From: Candidatus Ryanbacteria bacterium CG10_big_fil_rev_8_21_14_0_10_43_42
GTDB taxonomy: Bacteria; Patescibacteriota; Minisyncoccia; Ryanbacterales; 2-02-FULL-48-12
Length of the DNA stretch: 64,000 bases
Reading direction: 5' to 3'
NCBI GenBank assembly: GCA_002793915.1
Contig: PFEF01000003.1
Span: forward strand, 18,854 to 82,853
The position numbers and the translations under genes were made by a program. The notes beneath the pieces were generated by a model that worked only from the letters and a program-made list of their open reading frames with translations, did not search any database and had not been told where the DNA came from. Each line of letters starts with the position of its first letter. Positions within the stretch are counted from its first letter, which is position 1. Below are positions 85 to 58,504 of this stretch, piece by piece.

Positions 85-885
85 TCAAGCAATATGTGTC
101 CCTGTTTCTTTGAGAAAAAAGGAGTGAGGAGGCATTTTCAGGGAGGAGTGAATTCTTCTGGTATTGTAGTAGTGGATGTATCGACCAATGGCTTCAATCA
201 GAAGTTCGATGGTGGGGTGACGAGAAGGTTTCCCAAACTCCAATTTGAATTTATCATAGAATGACTCCTGATGGCCGTTTTTCCATGGTTTGGCCTTGGG
301 AGAGTGGGAAGGGAGAATCTTGTGATCGATGATCCATTGAATACAGGTATGGGAAGTGTATTCACTGCCTTGGTCGGAGTGAAAGAGGTAGGGAGTGCCT
401 CGTTTGCGCACCGCTTCTTCTAACACATCAAGCACCAATCGGGTGGTATGATGGAGACCAATCTGCCAGGCAATCACTTCTCGAGTAAATCGATCAATGA
501 TGGTAGCCAGATAGATTTTTGATCCATGAAAATGAAGCTCAGTAAAATCACCAACCCAGATGACATTCGGGGCAATGGGTGAAATGCCCTGAGTTCGATT
601 GGGTATGCCACTCATTGACTTGGTACGGCCATACCGAGCCTTTTTATGACGAATACGGGGTTGAATGCCAAACTTTTTCATCACGCGGTGAGCCCGATTT
701 TTCCCAATATGTAAGGCAATGGCGATACGGCGATAGCCATATGCTAGATGCTCGATCAATGTTTCCAAAATACGATCCCGCAGAGTACGGTCTTTAATCT
801 CTTGTTTTGGTTTGTAGTAGAGACTGGAACGGGAAACGCCGAGAGAGCGAGCGAGAGCCGCTTTGGAGATTTCTTTTTCCCGCAA
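85..885 (-). CDS. IS3-family transposase OrfB (DDE integrase catalytic core)
   Basis: The 266-aa translation has an rve-type core (WVGDFTE...HSDQGSEYTS...YYNTRRIHSSL). The listed first codon is TTG, so it is probably expressed as an OrfAB fusion by frameshifting. Confidence 0.9.
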   Translation of the reverse strand: MREKEISKAALARSLGVSRSSLYYKPKQEIKDRTLRDRILETLIEHLAYGYRRIAIALHIGKNRAHRVMKKFGIQPRIRHKKARYGRTKSMSGIPNRTQGISPIAPNVIWVGDFTELHFHGSKIYLATIIDRFTREVIAWQIGLHHTTRLVLDVLEEAVRKRGTPYLFHSDQGSEYTSHTCIQWIIDHKILPSHSPKAKPWKNGHQESFYDKFKLEFGKPSRHPTIELLIEAIGRYIHYYNTRRIHSSLKMPPHSFFLKETGTHIA

Positions 886-889
886 AATA

Positions 890-1156
890 TCACGCGCTAA
901 GAAAGGAGCTTTTCTTTTTCATCTTCTGGTGCAGAATCATTTCGCCAATGATAGCTTTCAATTCCTGATTCTCCTGTTTCAACCTTTGTACTTCTGTACT
1001 GGAGGTATGGCTATTTCTGGTTTGTTTCCGTAGCCACTTCTTAATCGTATCTTCTGTTATTACAAATGTCTTCGCGGCATCAGGGATGGACATACCTTCA
1101 TCCTTGATGGCGGAAATAATCTTAGCCCGTTGTTCCGGGCTGACGCGTGTTGCCAT
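890..1156 (-). CDS. IS3-family transposase OrfA (HTH DNA-binding + leucine zipper)
   Basis: 88 aa. N-terminal HTH ([19 protein letters not shown]) followed by a heptad Leu/Ile zipper ([19 protein letters not shown]). Ends 4 nt upstream of the orfB start. Confidence 0.85.
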
Positions 1157-1253
1157 ATATGTATATATTACGTCCGTCTAAAGGTGCGGACACATGTACA
1201 GTATATCAGGGCCATGCCAACAAGAGCCTGCGCGCGGTCTTCGTCCTACACTG

Positions 1254-1338
1254 CGGAGAGGGAGGGATTCGAACCCTCGAAGCCTTTCGACTTGCCGGTT
1301 TTCAAGACCGGTGCATTCAACCGCTCTGCCACCTCTCC
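1254..1338 (-). tRNA. tRNA-Ser (anticodon TGA)
   Basis: Reverse complement GGAGAGGTGGCAGAGCGG...CCGGTCTTGAAAACCGG...GGGTTCGAATCCCTCCCTCTCCG has a 7-bp acceptor stem, anticodon loop CTTGAAA, a long variable arm and a TTCGAAT T-loop. Confidence 0.8.
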
Positions 1339-1457
1339 CGATTTTTATCTTCACTTGCTGTCCGCATTAAAAATTATTTGGAATATACCACACCTATAAA
1401 CTAACTCCTGCACCCGAAAGTTTTGCCGCCAAACCACAGATTTGGGCAAAATTCGGG

Positions 1458-1546
1458 CGGAGAGGGAGGGATTCGAACCCTCGAACCGGTTTTACCCAGT
1501 TAACTCCTTAGCAGGGAGCCCCTTTCAACCACTCAGGCACCTCTCC
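1458..1546 (-). tRNA. tRNA-Ser (anticodon GCT)
   Basis: Reverse complement GGAGAGGTGCCTGAGTGGTTGAAAGGGGCTCCCTGCTAAGGAG...GGTTCGAATCCCTCCCTCTCCG. Anticodon loop CTGCTAA, long variable arm, canonical T-arm. Confidence 0.8.
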
Positions 1547-1704
1547 AATATATTTAATTATTTGTACAAACCTCCGGTTTTACCCAGGCGCAAAGTAATG
1601 CCTATTACTTTGCGCTCCCGCGCAGGGAGCCCCTTTCAACCACTCAGGCACCTCTCCAATATATTTAATTATTTGTACAAACCTCCGGTTTTACCCAGGC
1701 GCAA
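1511..1704. repeat. Perfect 83-bp direct repeat, two copies (1511-1593 and 1622-1704), separated by a 28-nt spacer that forms a 12-bp-stem hairpin (GCGCAAAGTAAT gcct ATTACTTTGCGC)
   Basis: Each copy is the 5' ~36 nt of tRNA-Ser(GCT), ending inside the anticodon loop, plus 47 nt of upstream flank. Copy 1 is part of the intact tRNA and copy 2 is an orphan 5' half. Confidence 0.75.
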
Positions 1705-1794
1705 TTGAGGGTTGCCGGGTAGCGCTCAATCCCCTTTCTTTAGGAATATAATCCTCGGCAAAGCCTCGAGCAAAAAACTGTTTATTCCTAAAGC

Positions 1795-1860
1795 CGGGGA
1801 AACGTTTGTTTCCCGTTGGAAGCTCACTTACTCGCTTCCAACCCACTTAGGCACCTCTCC
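1795..1860 (-). pseudogene. tRNA-like remnant (pseudo-tRNA)
   Basis: Minus-strand sequence starts GGAGAGGTGCCTAAGTGGG, nearly identical to the 5' ends of the two Ser tRNAs. Two non-canonical stem-loops follow and there is no TTCGAAT T-loop. A TAATATAAT -10-like box lies upstream, as at the real tRNAs. Confidence 0.4.
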
Positions 1861-1951
1861 AGATATTATATTATCGGCAAAGCCTTAAACAAAAACGTTA
1901 CCCTTAAAGAATATCATTCCCCATTATGGCTTCAACCGTAGCATAATCTTA

Positions 1952-2557
1952 TTGGATTTTAAACACTTGCCTTGCTACAATACTACTGCTACTATGACAT
2001 CCGTAATAAACTTAAAAAAACATGACCGTCCGCTTTCTTCCGAAAAAGCGACTCCCCCTCTAGCGCCGGATCAGAAAAAATCGGAACGGGAAAATTTTTA
2101 CCGCCCTATTTTATGGGAAGCGGAGGAATATCCCTATTACCGAAAATCATCCGATTGGTACTGGGCTGTTGGTATTATTACCGCAGGATTTTTTGCTGTA
2201 GCTATTATTGTGGGAAACTTGCTGTTCGGCGCATTTATCCTTCTTGGAGGATTTACCCTTGCTCTCTATGGCGCACGCCGCCCCCAAACCGTATCTTTTT
2301 CCATCTCACCGAAAGGTGTTCATGTGGGCGACACGATATATCCTTATGAATCCATAAAGTCATTTTGGATATTCTACGACCCGCCCCATGTAAAGGAATT
2401 AAGCATTGAATCGCATAAATTTATAATGCCTCATATTAGAATTCCTTTGGGAAACGTAAATCCCGCGAATATGCGTTCGTACCTTCAGCAATTTCTCCCC
2501 GAGGAACAGCAGGAAGAAGCCCTTACCGATTCTCTGGCGCGTTATTTTCGGTTTTAA
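1952..2557 (+). CDS. hypothetical membrane protein
   Basis: 201-aa ORF with a clear hydrophobic segment (WYWAVGIITAGFFAVAIIVGNLLFGAFILLGGFTLALYG). No recognisable motif. The true start may be the internal Met at MTSVINL. Confidence 0.55.
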   Translation: MDFKHLPCYNTTATMTSVINLKKHDRPLSSEKATPPLAPDQKKSERENFYRPILWEAEEYPYYRKSSDWYWAVGIITAGFFAVAIIVGNLLFGAFILLGGFTLALYGARRPQTVSFSISPKGVHVGDTIYPYESIKSFWIFYDPPHVKELSIESHKFIMPHIRIPLGNVNPANMRSYLQQFLPEEQQEEALTDSLARYFRF

Positions 2558-2618: not shown

Positions 2619-2690
2619 GTTCCCGTCGTTCAATGGATAGGACGCCAGCTTGCGGAGTTGGTAATAGAGGTTCGAATCCTCTCGGGAACA
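2619..2690 (+). tRNA. tRNA-Arg (anticodon GCG)
   Basis: Manual fold: acceptor GTTCCCG/CGGGAAC, D-arm GTTC-AATGGATA-GGAC, anticodon stem CCAGC/GTTGG with loop TTGCGGA (34-36 = GCG), T-arm AGAGG-TTCGAAT-CCTCT, discriminator A. Confidence 0.7.
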
Positions 2691-2733
2691 CAATAACATT
2701 TCCCTTGCTCAGTATTCTTCGTATACTACATAT

Positions 2734-5765: not shown

Positions 5766-7307
5766 TTAGCGGCGATGCTTAGGCGTAACCCAAAAACCAA
5801 GCCGCCATCGTCCCCCCAGCATGAGGCGCGTTTGGGCCTCGAGCCCCGGAATGGCGCCAAAAACAATGATGGTAAACGGCATAAGCACCCATTGAAAAAC
5901 CATACTAAAACTCCTCCACTTGCCATAGTGTTTCGGACGCGGCGGCAGAAGAGATGTTGAAATAACGGCAGATGTGATAAGCCCCACCATAGCAAATCGC
6001 ATAAGCGTCTGTGTAATAACCGGCAAATTATAAGAAAGAAGCGTTGTATTAAACTCTTTCCCTCCCAGATAAATGGGAAGCCATCCCAAGGCAAAAATAA
6101 TAAGTGCATTGGTCGCCCATGACCAAAACCCCTCCAGCAAGACACCGGTAAAATATATTTTTTGTCTAATGGGAATATTTTTGTTCCGTACAAAATTAAA
6201 AAATACATATGGCATATTTTCGACTCCCCATCCCCACCTGCGTTGTTGCTTGTATACATTTTTTACCGTTTCCCAAAATGTAGGGGCAACATTTGCATCC
6301 AATGATATTGGATATGAAAGCGGTATTGTACGGTAGTCTCCGTTATACGGAAAAAAATGATTCCAAAAAATACGCGAATCTTCCGATACAATGTTTTTCT
6401 GCCAATAGCCGACATCCACAAGTCCGCTTAAACTCATAGAATGAGAAGAAAATGTTGTAAGCCGTTCCGGACGCTCCTGTTGCATCATTTGCCAAAACGT
6501 ACCCGATGACGCAACCACGCGGGAAAGCATGGGGGCATCCCATATATTATTGTTATATACCGGCACCGGCTGAAATGATGAGCGATACGGTTTTTCTACT
6601 GTAAGAAAGTGATATGCTACACAAGAAAAATAATGCGGATACACGCGGGAATCGATATCAAATGCAGAAACAATTACATTTTTATGCGGAATATTTTTCG
6701 GATCAATATAGTTCTCTACAATTTCTTTGGCGGCATATGTTCCGTTTGATCCCTTTCCCGCAAGCTCACCCTCTGTGTCCATAGGATGCAATGTTGTAAA
6801 AAACATACCGAACTTATCACCATACTCTTCGACAATAACACGCTCTGTTTCAGCGGCCTCCTCTCCGGCGCGCTCCTCCCGAGCGAGAACAATAATCATA
6901 CGATCTTTCGGCCAGGGCGTTGCTAAAATGGCATCTAAAGATCCTCGCACAACGGAAGCATCTTCTTTATAAAACGGCAGTATAACCAGTTGTTGTAAAT
7001 GCTCCCACCGCATATTAGCAAGTTTTGAATGCCAATCGATTTCCATATGTTTTTTAAGACGCTTGGCGCTAATACGCATATGCACCGATAAAAATACGGT
7101 CTTTATAAGCCAGTACAAATCGAATGTAATGATAAACACAGCCGCCCACACGGGCGCCCGCCACGAAAGAAGGAAAAGTCCTATAAGCGTAGTCCACGCA
7201 AGCGCTCCCGGAACAATCTCAAAAAAACGATAAAGACGACGATCGCTTCCCGTTAAGTCATTTGCTTTTGAAATATTGTAATATGTATTCACGCAGGAAT
7301 TGTACAT
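5766..7307 (-). CDS. processive family-2 glycosyltransferase (polysaccharide synthase-like, QxxRW motif), integral membrane
   Basis: 513 aa. N- and C-terminal transmembrane helices, D-x-D (SAFDIDS) and KQQRRWGWG (QxxRW) as in cellulose/chitin/hyaluronan-synthase-type GT2 enzymes. Confidence 0.7.
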   Translation of the reverse strand: MYNSCVNTYYNISKANDLTGSDRRLYRFFEIVPGALAWTTLIGLFLLSWRAPVWAAVFIITFDLYWLIKTVFLSVHMRISAKRLKKHMEIDWHSKLANMRWEHLQQLVILPFYKEDASVVRGSLDAILATPWPKDRMIIVLAREERAGEEAAETERVIVEEYGDKFGMFFTTLHPMDTEGELAGKGSNGTYAAKEIVENYIDPKNIPHKNVIVSAFDIDSRVYPHYFSCVAYHFLTVEKPYRSSFQPVPVYNNNIWDAPMLSRVVASSGTFWQMMQQERPERLTTFSSHSMSLSGLVDVGYWQKNIVSEDSRIFWNHFFPYNGDYRTIPLSYPISLDANVAPTFWETVKNVYKQQRRWGWGVENMPYVFFNFVRNKNIPIRQKIYFTGVLLEGFWSWATNALIIFALGWLPIYLGGKEFNTTLLSYNLPVITQTLMRFAMVGLITSAVISTSLLPPRPKHYGKWRSFSMVFQWVLMPFTIIVFGAIPGLEAQTRLMLGGRWRLGFWVTPKHRR

Positions 7308-9460: not shown

Positions 9461-9532
9461 CGGTCTGTAGCTCAATGGTAGAGCGCTGAGCTTATACCTC
9501 AGTGGTTGTAGGTTCGATCCCTACCAGACCGA
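9461..9532 (+). tRNA. tRNA-Ile (anticodon TAT)
   Basis: Manual fold: acceptor CGGTCTG/CAGACCG, D-arm GCTC-AATGGTA-GAGC, anticodon stem CTGAG/CTCAG with loop CTTATAC (34-36 = TAT), T-arm GTAGG-TTCGATC-CCTAC, discriminator A. Confidence 0.7.
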
Positions 9533-9539
9533 CAAAAAA

Positions 9540-29535: not shown

Positions 29536-30646
29536 AGCGGTCGGTTCACTCTCAAAATTATTTTCCGAAGCGCCGGAGCCGTATATTGCATACCGCGCAG
29601 CGGAAAATTTGTTTTGCAAGGCGTTTGAAGCCGAAAACCTTTCGCGTTCGGATGCTTCCGCTGATGCCTCAAAGAATAAAGTCGGTTTCGGAATAAAAAC
29701 ATTTTTGCACAAGAACGGAAAGTCGTTTGAAAAAATTGCCGAATTCAACAGCGACCACTCGCTTTTTCGCGCACTCGGCACCGAAGAAAAAATCAGAAAA
29801 ATTGCAGAGCTTAGAAATGAGCGCATAGAAACGACAAAGCGCATTTTCGGGCTTGAACAAATTATTTACCACTGTATAACGCGGCAGGTCGGAAAAATTC
29901 TTGTCTACGAAACTCCGGCTCCGCTAATTAAAATTGACGAAATAAAAGACCTGAAAGCGAACGGAAACACAATCCAGTTTTCCGACCCGTCCGCAGAGTA
30001 TTCTTTCAATGTTGCAAAAAGCACCCTGTATAAGCGGTTTATTACGCCCGAAAATGTGCTTCTTGAAGTTCCGGTTAGAATTCTTGAGGACCCGTTTGAC
30101 GAGATTGAAAAACTTATAACAGAAGCGGGACTAATTTTTGCTCCGATAAAAGTCCAGCCACATGTATTTCTTCCGCTGTATTCTACGCGGGGAGGAGATA
30201 AAAAGGTTCCTGAAAAAAGCGGACTTAATCAGTGGAACGCGAGTGGCCGTCCCCGCGATCCGAACGAGATTTATATTCCGATACCGGCATGGCTACACAG
30301 AAAATTTCCGAACTTCTTTCCTCCCCGCGACCAAGCATTTGAACTCACTTTGCCCGACAGGGCGACAATGAGCGCAAAAGTTTGCCAAGACAACAGCAAG
30401 GCGTTAATGAGCAATCCAAACTCTGCTCTGGGCAAATGGCTTTTGCGCGATGTTCTCAATCTTTCGGAGCGGGAACTGCTGACTTATGACAAACTTCAGG
30501 CAATCGGGCTTGATACTGTCGTTATCTACAAGACTGATAATCATACTTATGACATTGATTTTACGCGCATTGGGTCATACGAAAAGTTTTTGAATGAAAA
30601 CGGTGAATCCGGCGAGGAGGAAATCTCTGACGATGAGGAGGAATAA
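29480..30646 (+). CDS. putative type II restriction endonuclease (assigned by position between the C5-MTase and Vsr; catalytic motif not verified)
   Basis: 388-aa ORF with no recognisable enzymatic motif by eye. Acidic C-terminal tail (GESGEEEISDDEEE). Confidence 0.45.
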   Translation: MFIESQSKEQREYYERLLKAVGSLSKLFSEAPEPYIAYRAAENLFCKAFEAENLSRSDASADASKNKVGFGIKTFLHKNGKSFEKIAEFNSDHSLFRALGTEEKIRKIAELRNERIETTKRIFGLEQIIYHCITRQVGKILVYETPAPLIKIDEIKDLKANGNTIQFSDPSAEYSFNVAKSTLYKRFITPENVLLEVPVRILEDPFDEIEKLITEAGLIFAPIKVQPHVFLPLYSTRGGDKKVPEKSGLNQWNASGRPRDPNEIYIPIPAWLHRKFPNFFPPRDQAFELTLPDRATMSAKVCQDNSKALMSNPNSALGKWLLRDVLNLSERELLTYDKLQAIGLDTVVIYKTDNHTYDIDFTRIGSYEKFLNENGESGEEEISDDEEE

Positions 30647-57592: not shown

Positions 57593-58072
57593 ATGATTAC
57601 TCTTGCTGTAAATCGGAGAGCGCGATTCGACTTTGATATCCTGGAAACATTCGAAGCGGGATTGTCTTTGCATGGATATGAAGTAAAGTCTGTAAAAATG
57701 GGGCGTGCGAGTATTGGAGGAGCGCATGCCATTATTCGCGGCGAAGAAGCCTATATTATAGGCATGCAAATACCGCCCTACCAGCCGGATAATACCCCTG
57801 ATACATACGATCCGTCTCGTACGAAGAAGCTTATTCTAAAAAAAGCGGAAATTCGTTCTCTTATAGGAAAAATTATCCAAAAAGGCTTGACTTTAACCCC
57901 CATTCGAGTGTATACTAAGCGTGGTCTTGTAAAGATGGAGCTCGGTCTTGCACGCGGAAAAAAGAAAGAAGATAAACGCCAAAAAATCAAAGAACGAGAT
58001 GCGAAACGCAAAATTGAGCGGACTCTTAAAACAAGAATGCAGATAACAGGGGGACGTCGGGATTCGACGTAG
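57593..58072 (+). CDS. smpB: SsrA-binding protein SmpB
   Basis: 159 aa. Conserved RRARFDF..ETFEAG...GYEVKSVK...IPPY and a basic C-terminal tail. The stop (58070-58072) lies 23 nt inside the predicted tmRNA 5' end. Confidence 0.9.
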   Translation: MITLAVNRRARFDFDILETFEAGLSLHGYEVKSVKMGRASIGGAHAIIRGEEAYIIGMQIPPYQPDNTPDTYDPSRTKKLILKKAEIRSLIGKIIQKGLTLTPIRVYTKRGLVKMELGLARGKKKEDKRQKIKERDAKRKIERTLKTRMQITGGRRDST

Positions 58073-58415
58073 TATCCCGGTACATATACTAATCAGGCAG
58101 AGCGCAACCTCTTAAAACTACGAAATAGATAAGTGCAAACTTATTCAAAAAAGCGTTCGCACAGCCAGCAATGGCGTTGGCGTAACGCTTTCCGGGGTTC
58201 GATCTTGCTCTTTAGCAAGACATCCCGGACATCGATAAGATTCACGTCCGTACGATCTTATTTCGGTGTTATATCATCGGACTCGATGATTCCGACTGCT
58301 TGATACGAATCATGACATAAATCAGGCACCCCTTTTGTGCTTCGGCACAGAATAATACCTGTAACAGTTAGATATGTGCCCTCTACGGACGGGAGTTCAA
58401 CTCTCCCCGTCTCCA
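58050..58415 (+). ncRNA. ssrA: tmRNA (ssrA)
   Basis: 5' GGGGACGUCGGGAUUCGACG (tRNA-like acceptor/D). 3' GGACGGGAGUUCAACUCUCCCCGUCUCCA (T-arm plus acceptor pairing with the 5' end, discriminator A). Internal tag reading frame 58135-58185, GCAAAC...GCGTTGGCGTAA, encodes ANLFKKAFAQPAMALA followed by a stop. Confidence 0.85.
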
Positions 58416-58504
58416 CAAGTTTTGCCACCTTTTGCCAAGAGCAAAATAGTTGCAAAACTTAATACACTACACCCGCAAAGTTTAGTGTATACATTGTTTA
58501 AGTT

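Follow-up and report, generated by a model that had tools for sequence, protein, structure and literature searches.

A stacked array of orphan tRNA pieces upstream of tRNA-Ser(GCT) in a Ryanbacteria contig and its likely relation to GIY-YIG nuclease cassettes

Why should a bacterial tRNA gene be preceded by several broken copies of its own beginning? This question is raised by a 64,000-nt stretch (hereafter the window) of contig PFEF01000003.1, positions 18,854 to 82,853, from Candidatus Ryanbacteria bacterium CG10_big_fil_rev_8_21_14_0_10_43_42, an uncultivated, ultra-small member of the candidate phyla radiation (CPR). Homologues of the membrane-protein gene beside the array bear names of Candidatus Giovannonibacteria, a group to which the organism is close. 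About 400 bp upstream of its tRNA-Ser(GCT) gene are occupied by three displaced, decaying copies of the 5' part of the gene and of its flank, each of them broken in a loop and capped by a hairpin. In this work, we dissected this array and compared it with tRNA loci of related Parcubacteria (comparison contigs and loci are labelled L001 to L160, and two of the orphan tRNA pieces W2 and W3). The reading that we favour, to which we assign a probability of roughly 0.55, is that the array represents stacked fossil scars of small cassettes encoding a GIY-YIG nuclease, and of repair. An initial annotation, made from the sequence alone, had recognised a rearranged tRNA-Ser(GCT) 5' region with non-functional orphan pieces and had suspected mobile-element activity; the first view is upheld here and the second names the likely cause, but the comparative evidence points to another agent than the one proposed, namely GIY-YIG cassettes and hairpin modules.

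Anatomy and reality of the array

Read on the minus strand from 1885 to 1455, the array comprises the features listed below, followed by the genes on either side.

1861-1885 (-): native upstream flank of the original tRNA 5' end (AAGGCTTTGCCGATAATATAATATCT), defined by the repeat and by alignment with L072
1771-1860 (-): orphan W3, defined by the W3-type family alignment and its fold (z = -3.62)
1741-1770 (-): internal diverged copy of the native upstream flank (GAGGCTTTGCCGAGGATTATATTCCT; repeat of 22 nt, 86 %, spacing 119), aligning with both L072 flanks
~1699-1740 (-): degenerate older copy, defined by a D-arm remnant and local alignment
1685-1698 (-): exact copy of the variable-arm 14-mer, from a motif search
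1658-1684 (-): linker, copy 2, an exact match to copy 1
1574-1657 (-): orphan W2, defined by the direct repeat, its 83-bp exact core and its fold; no tRNA call
1614-1630 (no strand): second junction hairpin, GCTCCC-TGCGC-GGGAGC, from sequence reading and comparison with the reverse complement of the repeat end
1588-1599/1604-1615 (no strand): perfect palindrome with a 12-bp stem and a 4-nt loop, 100 % complementary, from an inverted-repeat scan; unique in the window
1547-1573 (-): 27-nt linker AGGTTTGTACAAATAATTAAATATATT, copy 1, with its exact second copy at 1658-1684
1455-1547 (-): tRNA-Ser(GCT), intact, the sole functional copy in the array; variable arm at 1486-1499 (ARAGORN; Rfam RF00005, 58.3 bits; fold)
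1253-1338 (-): tRNA-Ser(TGA), intact (ARAGORN; Rfam RF00005, 62.2 bits)
85-1156 (-): IS3-family element, orfB 85-885 and orfA 890-1156 (NCBIfam NF033516, 225 bits; also in L002, whose gene table lists rve domains)
1994-2557 (+): divergent membrane-protein gene, a synteny anchor (open reading frame call and homologue search)
2619-2691 (+): tRNA-Arg(GCG), after the membrane-protein gene, a synteny anchor

The two intact tRNA-Ser genes described initially were recovered when the proposed ARAGORN check was run, with Rfam in agreement, and the minimum-free-energy fold of tRNA-Ser(GCT) is a cloverleaf. No further tRNA was found in 1150-2050 with ARAGORN or with Rfam at E up to 10. The motif of T arm and acceptor occurs only twice in the window, so that W2, W3 and the degenerate copy fail the test for a functional tRNA; devoid of a T arm and a 3' acceptor strand, these orphans cannot be tRNAs. 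Neither a tRNA intron nor a ribozyme-like sequence was detected in the array, which has no Rfam match of that kind. As a side observation, the two intact genes share an identical 29-nt 3' end (T arm and acceptor strand; 1253-1281 and 1457-1485) and the acceptor 5' strand GGAGAGG, while in L072 the acceptor stems of the two tRNA-Ser isoacceptors differ.

W2 belongs to a direct repeat of 90 nt (1504-1593 versus 1615-1704; 97 %, period 111), whose exact core (1511-1593 = 1622-1704) is the 83-bp second copy of flank and 5' half reported initially; 46 nt of this core lie upstream of the tRNA and 37 nt within it. It contains positions 1-37 of tRNA-Ser(GCT) without change, an altered loop CUGCGCG, the retained 3' strand of the anticodon stem, the 12-bp hairpin and a copy of the variable arm; the T arm and the 3' acceptor strand are absent. 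A breakpoint in the anticodon loop had been proposed, which is right for this recent event, but the similarity continues past the loop, with the GGAG stem strand and the variable arm kept. The 14-nt variable arm, CTGGGTAAAACCGG, is thus present three times, at 1486, 1574 and 1685.

The junction between the exact copies is a 28-nt filler, GCGGGAGCGCAAAGTAATAGGCATTACT, at 1594-1621. The perfect palindrome had been thought to fill this gap exactly; it actually overlaps the repeat by 6 nt, and the remaining 6 nt of the gap belong to the second hairpin (1614-1630), a quasi-palindrome composed of the 5' strand of the anticodon stem and its near-inverted copy. The filler starts with GC-GGGAGC, which is nearly the end of the repeat inverted (compare the reverse complement of GCTCCCTGC), continues with GCGCAA, an inverted copy of the repeat start TTGCGC, and encloses a 16-nt palindrome; TTGCGC itself, the first 6 nt of the repeat unit, lies in the right arm of the 12-bp palindrome. 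Being made of inverted copies of both junction ends, the filler places two hairpins side by side at the point of the break. Inverted-copy fillers of this kind are expected where a broken or stalled end is extended by snap-back or template-switch synthesis, and W2, the most recent event, looks like break repair with a templated filler. The resulting pattern is A-B-A, in which B is unrelated to the sequence following the second A, whereas a plain tandem duplication would read A-B-A-B.

The third 5' remnant noted initially is W3, which begins with GGAGAGGTGCCTAAGTGG at 1843-1860 (-), with one mismatch to the tRNA, and has no T arm. After these 18 nt of tRNA 5' end come a 9-bp stem (1815-1842) and a 7-bp stem (1797-1814), both perfect, then a short closure, which pairs with the strand of the D stem, and finally a T run. 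The degenerate copy between W3 and W2 is a fourth vestige that the initial annotation missed. Of its D arm only GAAAGGGG is left, with a substitute hairpin ATTGAG..CTCAAT; its local match was equalled by 64 of 2000 shuffles and its folding is not above that of shuffles (z = -0.21). The array region as a whole forms a structured stretch of ~400 nt (folding z = -3.8), whose motifs have a chance expectation of ~0 each in the 64-kb window; none of its hairpins and motifs occurs a second time elsewhere in the window. Upstream of the copies, the TATAAT-like boxes reported initially are present as A/T-rich boxes, but a -35/-10 pair of the sigma-70 type was not found before any copy.

The array is real. 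A contig of the Joint Genome Institute (L002, sample 3300025850) is identical to the window over 7557 bp, including the entire array, with a single mismatch at 6392. It was suggested that inspection might expose the duplication as an artefact of assembly, i.e. an expanded or chimeric repeat, and one observation favours this: assembly L001 ends inside the repeat, at window position 1645. Such a break is expected precisely because a true repeat lies there. Moreover, the 83-bp repeat is shorter than a read, L002 comes from another sample and matches through the whole array, and the unique 28-nt filler links a repeat end to a repeat start, which is possible only in a tandem arrangement. We therefore give an artefact practically no credence.

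GIY-YIG cassettes and related elements at tRNA genes of Parcubacteria

Every tRNA called by ARAGORN in 80 RecG loci of Parcubacteria was compared with its own surroundings. Orphan tRNA pieces beside intact tRNA genes proved common in these loci. Many of them flank an open reading frame (ORF) of 80-90 aa that corresponds to the GIY-YIG catalytic domain only (PF01541) and whose nearest solved relatives are UPF0213 proteins (PDB 1zg2 and 1ywl). This ORF lies at most 82 nt from a tRNA gene on the same strand in 11 of 12 cases, between the hairpin-capped orphan piece and the regenerated tRNA. In the recurring layout, an orphan tRNA piece with a loop break lies in direct orientation and is followed by two neighbouring hairpins, in some cases by an ORF, and then by an intact tRNA gene. 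In the window, W2 and W3 display the same combination of a direct-orientation orphan, a loop break, hairpins and a regenerated tRNA.

Two arrangements of the cassette were found. In the 3' type, seen at tRNA-Glu in L030, L039 and L043, the ORF is followed by the double hairpin and then by a 17-20 nt copy of the tRNA 3' end that starts in the T loop. In the 5' type (L034 at tRNA-Ser(GCT), L038 and L091 at tRNA-Glu), the ORF is preceded by the flank and by a 5' tRNA piece that contains a double hairpin or is followed by one, and the intact tRNA stands a few nt past the stop codon. ORF-less cases with an anticodon-loop break like that of W2 are L015 and L090, the former with a typical double hairpin. 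It was also observed that the 3'-type ORF starts 0-2 nt past the 3' end of tRNA-Glu(TTC) (L030 5590-5980, L039 10495-10925 and L043 14970-15395, all on the minus strand), so that 3' processing of the tRNA would free a leaderless mRNA.

For an independent test, the L034 protein was used as a query, which gave 734 relatives; the 120 best ones, which were listed, show 70-87 % identity (plus the query's own sequence) and come from many CPR lineages. For two further homologues that were looked up, the ORF was located 6-60 nt upstream of a tRNA-Ser gene in 20 of 20 places. In L151-L160, the order is CAAG, GGAGAGGTGGCT, the double hairpin (TTGGCC-CAA-GGCCAA CCAGCC-TAG-GGCTGG), GAGCGG, 9 nt, the ORF, AAATTT and tRNA-Ser(GCT). 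The orphan there corresponds to tRNA positions 1-18 with the double hairpin in the D loop, which is essentially the W3 layout with the ORF present. In L141-L150, a whole new tRNA-Ser(TGA) is nested within an older allele whose halves still match each other. A comparison of L141 (1744-2100) with L145 (1744-2065) shows the acceptor GGAGGGG in tRNA-Ser(TGA), while in the older allele the 5' piece (GGAGGCG...) and the 3' piece (...CGCCTCC) pair up; of these nearly identical contigs, one has an additional hairpin of 35 nt inserted in the D loop of the orphan.

Two of these cassettes occur in the very place of the array. When the homologous locus was compared in relatives, as had been advised, L151 and L154 turned out to be syntenic with the window: both carry tRNA-Arg(GCG), a homologue of the neighbouring gene (32 % identity, E = 2e-31), a divergent spacer and then an intact cassette, with the orphan, the double hairpin and GAGCGG, the GIY-YIG ORF and tRNA-Ser(GCT), exactly at the position of the window's array. 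Most other tRNA-Ser(GCT) loci are without a cassette, and the homologous site is hence polymorphic for its presence. Furthermore, L155, which has the same cassette type, comes from the same sample as L002, and the window linker matches the stop codon and spacer of its ORF at 13 of 14 positions (AAATAATTAAATAT versus AAATAATTAAAAAT; 15 of 2000 shuffles scored as high). The resembling segment is the 3' part of the linker, which precedes both W2 and the tRNA. In the window as in L154, 134 nt separate the start codon of the neighbour from the first base of the orphan, but this agreement was given no weight, since the spacers do not align. An inversion of the tRNA-Ser pair, suggested by L003, L009 and L013, was likewise discarded: the window has the common layout of Parcubacteria (L038, L060, L043), with tRNA-Ser(TGA) (-) and tRNA-Ser(GCT) (-) divergent from tRNA-Arg (+) and RecG (+).

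W3 has ORF-less homologues of its own. It aligns with elements upstream of tRNA-Ser(GCT) in L072 (Patescibacteria) and L060 (Gribaldobacteria), and these three members share the first 15-18 nt of the host tRNA, hairpin 1 (GTTGG...CCAAC), hairpin 2 (GGnnnnC-nAAn-GnnnnCC), a D-stem closure and a T run. In hairpin 2, 4 of the 7 pairs have changed in a compensatory manner. In the three-way-junction fold of the family, 90.9 % of the cells are paired and 5 pairs changed on both sides, versus a shuffled mean of 2.0, on three sequences only; the elements also fold better than shuffles (z = -3.6, -2.5 and -4.4). A covariance model scores W3 at 91.5 bits and the others at 103 and 73.5 bits, all three being its seed sequences, and found no further member in ~1.4 Mb of related loci nor a formal link between W3 and the cassette hairpins. 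A W3-type element occurs in 3 of ~31 sampled tRNA-Ser(GCT) loci, a patchy distribution typical of a mobile element. The tRNA-Ser(GCT) of L072 is the most similar to that of the window (84 % overall), its tRNA-Ser(TGA) and tRNA-Arg being less close, which is compatible with a co-transfer of element and tRNA sequence but no proof of it. A pattern scan of metagenomes for W3-like starts gave 39 of 40 matches in unrelated coding sequence, and the match L099 is the same sequence as L072 and not independent.

A fixed 30-nt double-hairpin module with the consensus TCCGCCnnnGGCGGAyCCGCCnnnGGCGGr was found beside GIY-YIG ORFs at tRNA genes. In the window it has no match at up to 5 substitutions, and the window hairpins differ from it in size and sequence. 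Apart from the tRNA loci, copies were seen in frame within coding genes (L063 9923-9952 and 10496-10525; L080 2730-2759; L018 8089-8118; L031 8386-8415; L064 7432-7461; L054 12238-12267). Their hosts include RecG, at three different positions, a glycosyltransferase and others, and the module adds ~10 residues, e.g. SAKGGPASGG. Over 14 copies, chosen by a scan for perfect hairpins, 9 of 12 pairs vary on both sides.

Several other observations concern the same kind of sites. Downstream of tRNA-Arg, tRNA-Lys, tRNA-Leu and tRNA-Glu there are ORF-less elements of 90-200 nt that are rich in GC and in hairpins (L067 9455-9612 (-); L082 3415-3580 and 3706-3826 (+); L056 1-100 (-); L043 20510-20697 (-); L038 15243-15454 (-)); each ends in an exact 17-22 nt copy of the tRNA 3' end and several start with the T arm of that tRNA in inverted form (GGATTTGAACC). 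Upstream of the neighbour-gene homologue of L140 (1-146 (-)), a tRNA-Ser-like sequence, truncated by the contig end and without an ARAGORN call, has hairpin insertions after the D arm and within the T loop. A LAGLIDADG_3 gene of ~264-346 aa ends ~20-30 nt upstream of tRNA-Ser(GCT) in L024, L025, L045, L047, L083, L089 and L139, with tRNA-Ser(TGA) divergent on the other side in 5 of these 7 loci; L054 holds a homologous ORF with no tRNA after it. A PD-(D/E)XK gene (PDDEXK_5) stands between two tRNA-Ser genes in L065 (225-587) and has a homologue in L055 (7114-7458). The tRNA-Ser pair is thus a general hot spot for endonuclease-type genes. Duplicated tRNA fragments beside N runs (L021 13936-13965; L065 755-786) are probably scaffolding artefacts and were not counted as evidence.

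Origin of the array

The history that we propose starts with a cassette, i.e. an 80-90 aa GIY-YIG ORF and a double-hairpin module, which would enter a loop-coding part of a tRNA gene in Parcubacteria. It would bring along a replacement for the part that it displaces, so that the gene is regenerated on the far side, while the old piece would stay behind as an orphan interrupted or capped by hairpins. An ORF of the 5' type, which has no promoter of its own in view, may be expressed within the pre-tRNA and freed by RNase P. Such events would have struck the lineage of the window two or three times at the least, W3 recording a hit in the D loop and W2 one in the anticodon loop; the breaks were presumably made by the nuclease, and the lineage would later have lost the nuclease ORFs. 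In the latest event, a tandem copy of flank and 5' half may have been sealed by the inverted-copy filler during snap-back or template-switch repair of a break. Lying between the native promoter region and the working gene, the orphans are probably co-transcribed as a structured pre-tRNA leader that the 5' cut of RNase P removes.

Several findings weigh against this history. With five GIY-YIG queries, tblastn yielded no match in the 64-kb window better than E = 0.47, and no gene or remnant of the GIY-YIG, LAGLIDADG or PD-(D/E)XK type was detected there; the window can thus hold at most an ORF-less remnant of a cassette. Neither the sequence nor the size of its hairpins relates them to the 30-nt double hairpin of cassettes with an ORF, and it is accordingly linked to these cassettes by architecture and synteny, not by sequence homology. 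The direct repeat is 83 bp long, including 46 nt of flank, versus 8-39 nt in the cassettes, and the match of the linker covers few, mostly A/T positions. Among 185,579 species representatives, RecG identity reaches 50 % at best, so that no close relative was at hand for timing the events. Finally, the UPF0213-like proteins of CPR are putative nucleases. Within the array, a match of 11 aa to a LAGLIDADG C-terminus (1837-1869 (+)) was rejected as a nuclease-ORF remnant, being on the wrong strand and due to chance (E = 7.9). The LAGLIDADG-type protein of L045 had a weak tblastn match elsewhere in the window, where 30137-30316 (+) resembles its N-terminal part (32 % over 60 aa, E = 0.005).

The absence of a nuclease gene from the window would suit an origin by spontaneous replication errors only, in which a fork switches template at the anticodon stem-loop, recopies the flank and the 5' half, adds a palindromic filler and leaves neutral junk. 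The stems of tRNAs are quasi-palindromes, the 14-nt variable-arm repeats could favour unequal exchange, and older events of the same kind would account for the other vestiges. The W2 junction also fits, since CCCTGC is followed by GC-GGGAGC, approximately the reverse complement of the repeat end, and the 6 nt that open the repeat reappear, inverted, as the left arm of the 12-bp palindrome. Such errors nevertheless leave unexplained why the same architecture recurs at tRNA-Ser and tRNA-Glu of distant Parcubacteria in tight linkage with GIY-YIG ORFs, why two distant lineages possess homologues of W3 whose hairpins show compensatory changes, and why a syntenic relative carries an intact cassette at the same spot; the A-B-A pattern, too, is not the A-B-A-B of a plain tandem duplication. 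We consider this explanation unlikely. Somewhat less credible still is the proposal that the orphans are functional tRNA-derived RNAs, W3 and its homologues in L072 and L060 acting as a conserved structured small RNA or regulatory leader driven by a duplicated tRNA promoter, and W2 as an encoded 5' tRNA half, for instance as a decoy for anticodon nucleases, an extra promoter unit raising the dosage of tRNA-Ser or a processing signal. The folds of the W3-type elements, which exceed those of shuffles and bear the compensatory changes mentioned above, speak for a function, as do the immediate A/T-rich upstream flank kept by each copy and the loop changes of W2, which strengthen its hairpin and show no decay. 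On the other side, that covariation comes from three sequences, the elements are scattered among tRNA-Ser(GCT) loci like a mobile element, the degenerate copy is unstructured, neither a matching Rfam family nor a consensus promoter or terminator was found, and an exact 83-bp copy such as W2 is too young for selection to show.

The initial annotation had looked to a site-specific recombinase whose attachment site (attP) would match the tRNA, and had pointed to the adjacent IS3 copy. The anticodon loop is indeed a known crossover site of integrases, the subject of the sublocation classes reportedly defined by Williams in 2002. Breakpoints in the anticodon, T or D loops and direct repeats of tRNA sequence are common to the array and to tRNA-gene integrases. 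These, however, duplicate the 3' part of the gene and leave kilobases with an integrase gene between the repeats, and none of this is seen here: the duplicated segments are 5' parts with their upstream flank, merely 28 nt separate the copies, and collections of phages and plasmids matched the intact tRNA only. No integrase or recombinase was present among the genes called in the 11 kb downstream; on the other side, past the IS3 element, the sequence is visible for 374 nt only. The IS3 element itself is genuine, a two-ORF transposase with a DDE (rve) domain, although simple local alignment of its two ends gave no convincing terminal inverted repeat. It lies ~100 bp past tRNA-Ser(TGA), i.e. on the far side of another tRNA gene, and no tie to the array was found; as IS3 elements make target duplications of 3-4 bp, the array is hardly their by-product, and the element is a bystander. 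That the repeats are scars of an integrase-type element or phage using tRNA-Ser(GCT) as attB, or a by-product of IS3, is thus very improbable.

Known parallels and meaning for CPR genomes

The association of GIY-YIG genes with tRNA genes and the partial gene duplications caused by homing-endonuclease ORFs are already known in phages and organelles. The nearest known parallel, and an experimentally tested one, is SegB of phages T4 and T6, a GIY-YIG homing endonuclease that recognises a motif of the tRNA T loop (PMC2330249). It drives tandem segmental amplification, for which the 5' region of a tRNA recombines with the 3' end of the segB gene itself (PMC13096335). Like the nuclease of the CPR cassettes, SegB is encoded by a free-standing GIY-YIG gene among tRNA genes; it targets a conserved tRNA-loop motif and is inherited with flanking tRNA sequence. 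In the window, the linker that precedes each copy of the tRNA 5' end is similar to such an ORF 3' end. SegB, however, is encoded by phages and has a DNA-binding domain, whereas the CPR proteins are chromosomal, consist of 80-90 aa with the catalytic domain only and are closest to UPF0213. Their cassettes leave a hairpin-capped orphan tRNA piece, and the window is without any such ORF.

Fungal mitochondria offer a second comparison: in the atp6/ORF360 case of Allomyces, Paquin et al. 1994 reportedly described an invading ORF that brings a replacement gene end and leaves the displaced end as a pseudogene fragment. The logic of these homing ORFs is the same, with a host gene regenerated by the cassette copy and the old part kept as a partial duplicate in direct orientation (for the general context of free-standing homing-endonuclease ORFs, see PMC7487136). 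They concern protein genes, 3' ends and organelles, whereas the CPR cassettes concern tRNA genes, displace either end, carry hairpin modules and reside in bacteria. Template-switch or snap-back insertions at quasi-palindromes likewise contain inverted copies of both adjacent sequences and improve an imperfect palindrome, here that of the anticodon stem-loop. Known cases are point-like corrections or short insertions, whereas the filler of W2 is coupled to an 83-bp tandem copy and the pattern recurs at tRNA loops across the phylum. Split or permuted tRNA genes, known from Nanoarchaeum equitans and Cyanidioschyzon, also feature stand-alone 5' halves followed by structured sequence, but an intact gene is present here. 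As a candidate split tRNA the array was rejected, as no matching orphan 3' half was found in the window; moreover, bacteria are not known to have the archaeal splicing endonuclease.

Two further RNA genes of the window were recorded. A tRNA-Ile with the anticodon TAT (9461-9533 (+), Rfam 74 bits) is shared with the relative L135. Bacterial genomes do not usually encode a UAU anticodon, and this gene hints at decoding of AUA without lysidine. A transfer-messenger RNA gene at 58050-58416 (+) encodes the tag peptide ANLFKKAFAQPAMALA.

For this locus, the analysis explains an odd tRNA region: its orphans are dead and its IS3 element is unrelated. It also carries a warning for annotation and assembly, since such arrays break contigs, as in L001, and mimic pseudo-tRNAs. 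More tentatively, the window may hold fossils of an undescribed family of minimal mobile elements in CPR, in which a stand-alone UPF0213-type GIY-YIG nuclease and a double hairpin would home into tRNA loops, be expressed in the pre-tRNA, regenerate the split gene and spawn ORF-less derivatives such as the W3-type elements and the 30-bp in-frame module. A limited literature search, which is no proof of novelty, found no description of chromosomal, catalytic-domain-only tRNA cassettes in CPR, of hairpin-capped orphans on either side or of ORF-less stacks, nor of in-frame palindromic modules. If confirmed, the in-frame insertion of a 30-bp hairpin module into essential proteins would reveal a nano-element of a new, protein-altering kind.

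In ultra-small CPR bacteria, the smallest nuclease cassettes seen so far (~300 bp) appear to use tRNA genes routinely as homing sites, and the parallel with SegB suggests a general link between GIY-YIG nucleases and the plasticity of tRNA genes. Because tRNA sequences are conserved across lineages, such cassettes could easily cross species, dragging tRNA sequence with them, and they may thereby shape the evolution of tRNAs in genomes that hold a single copy of each tRNA gene.

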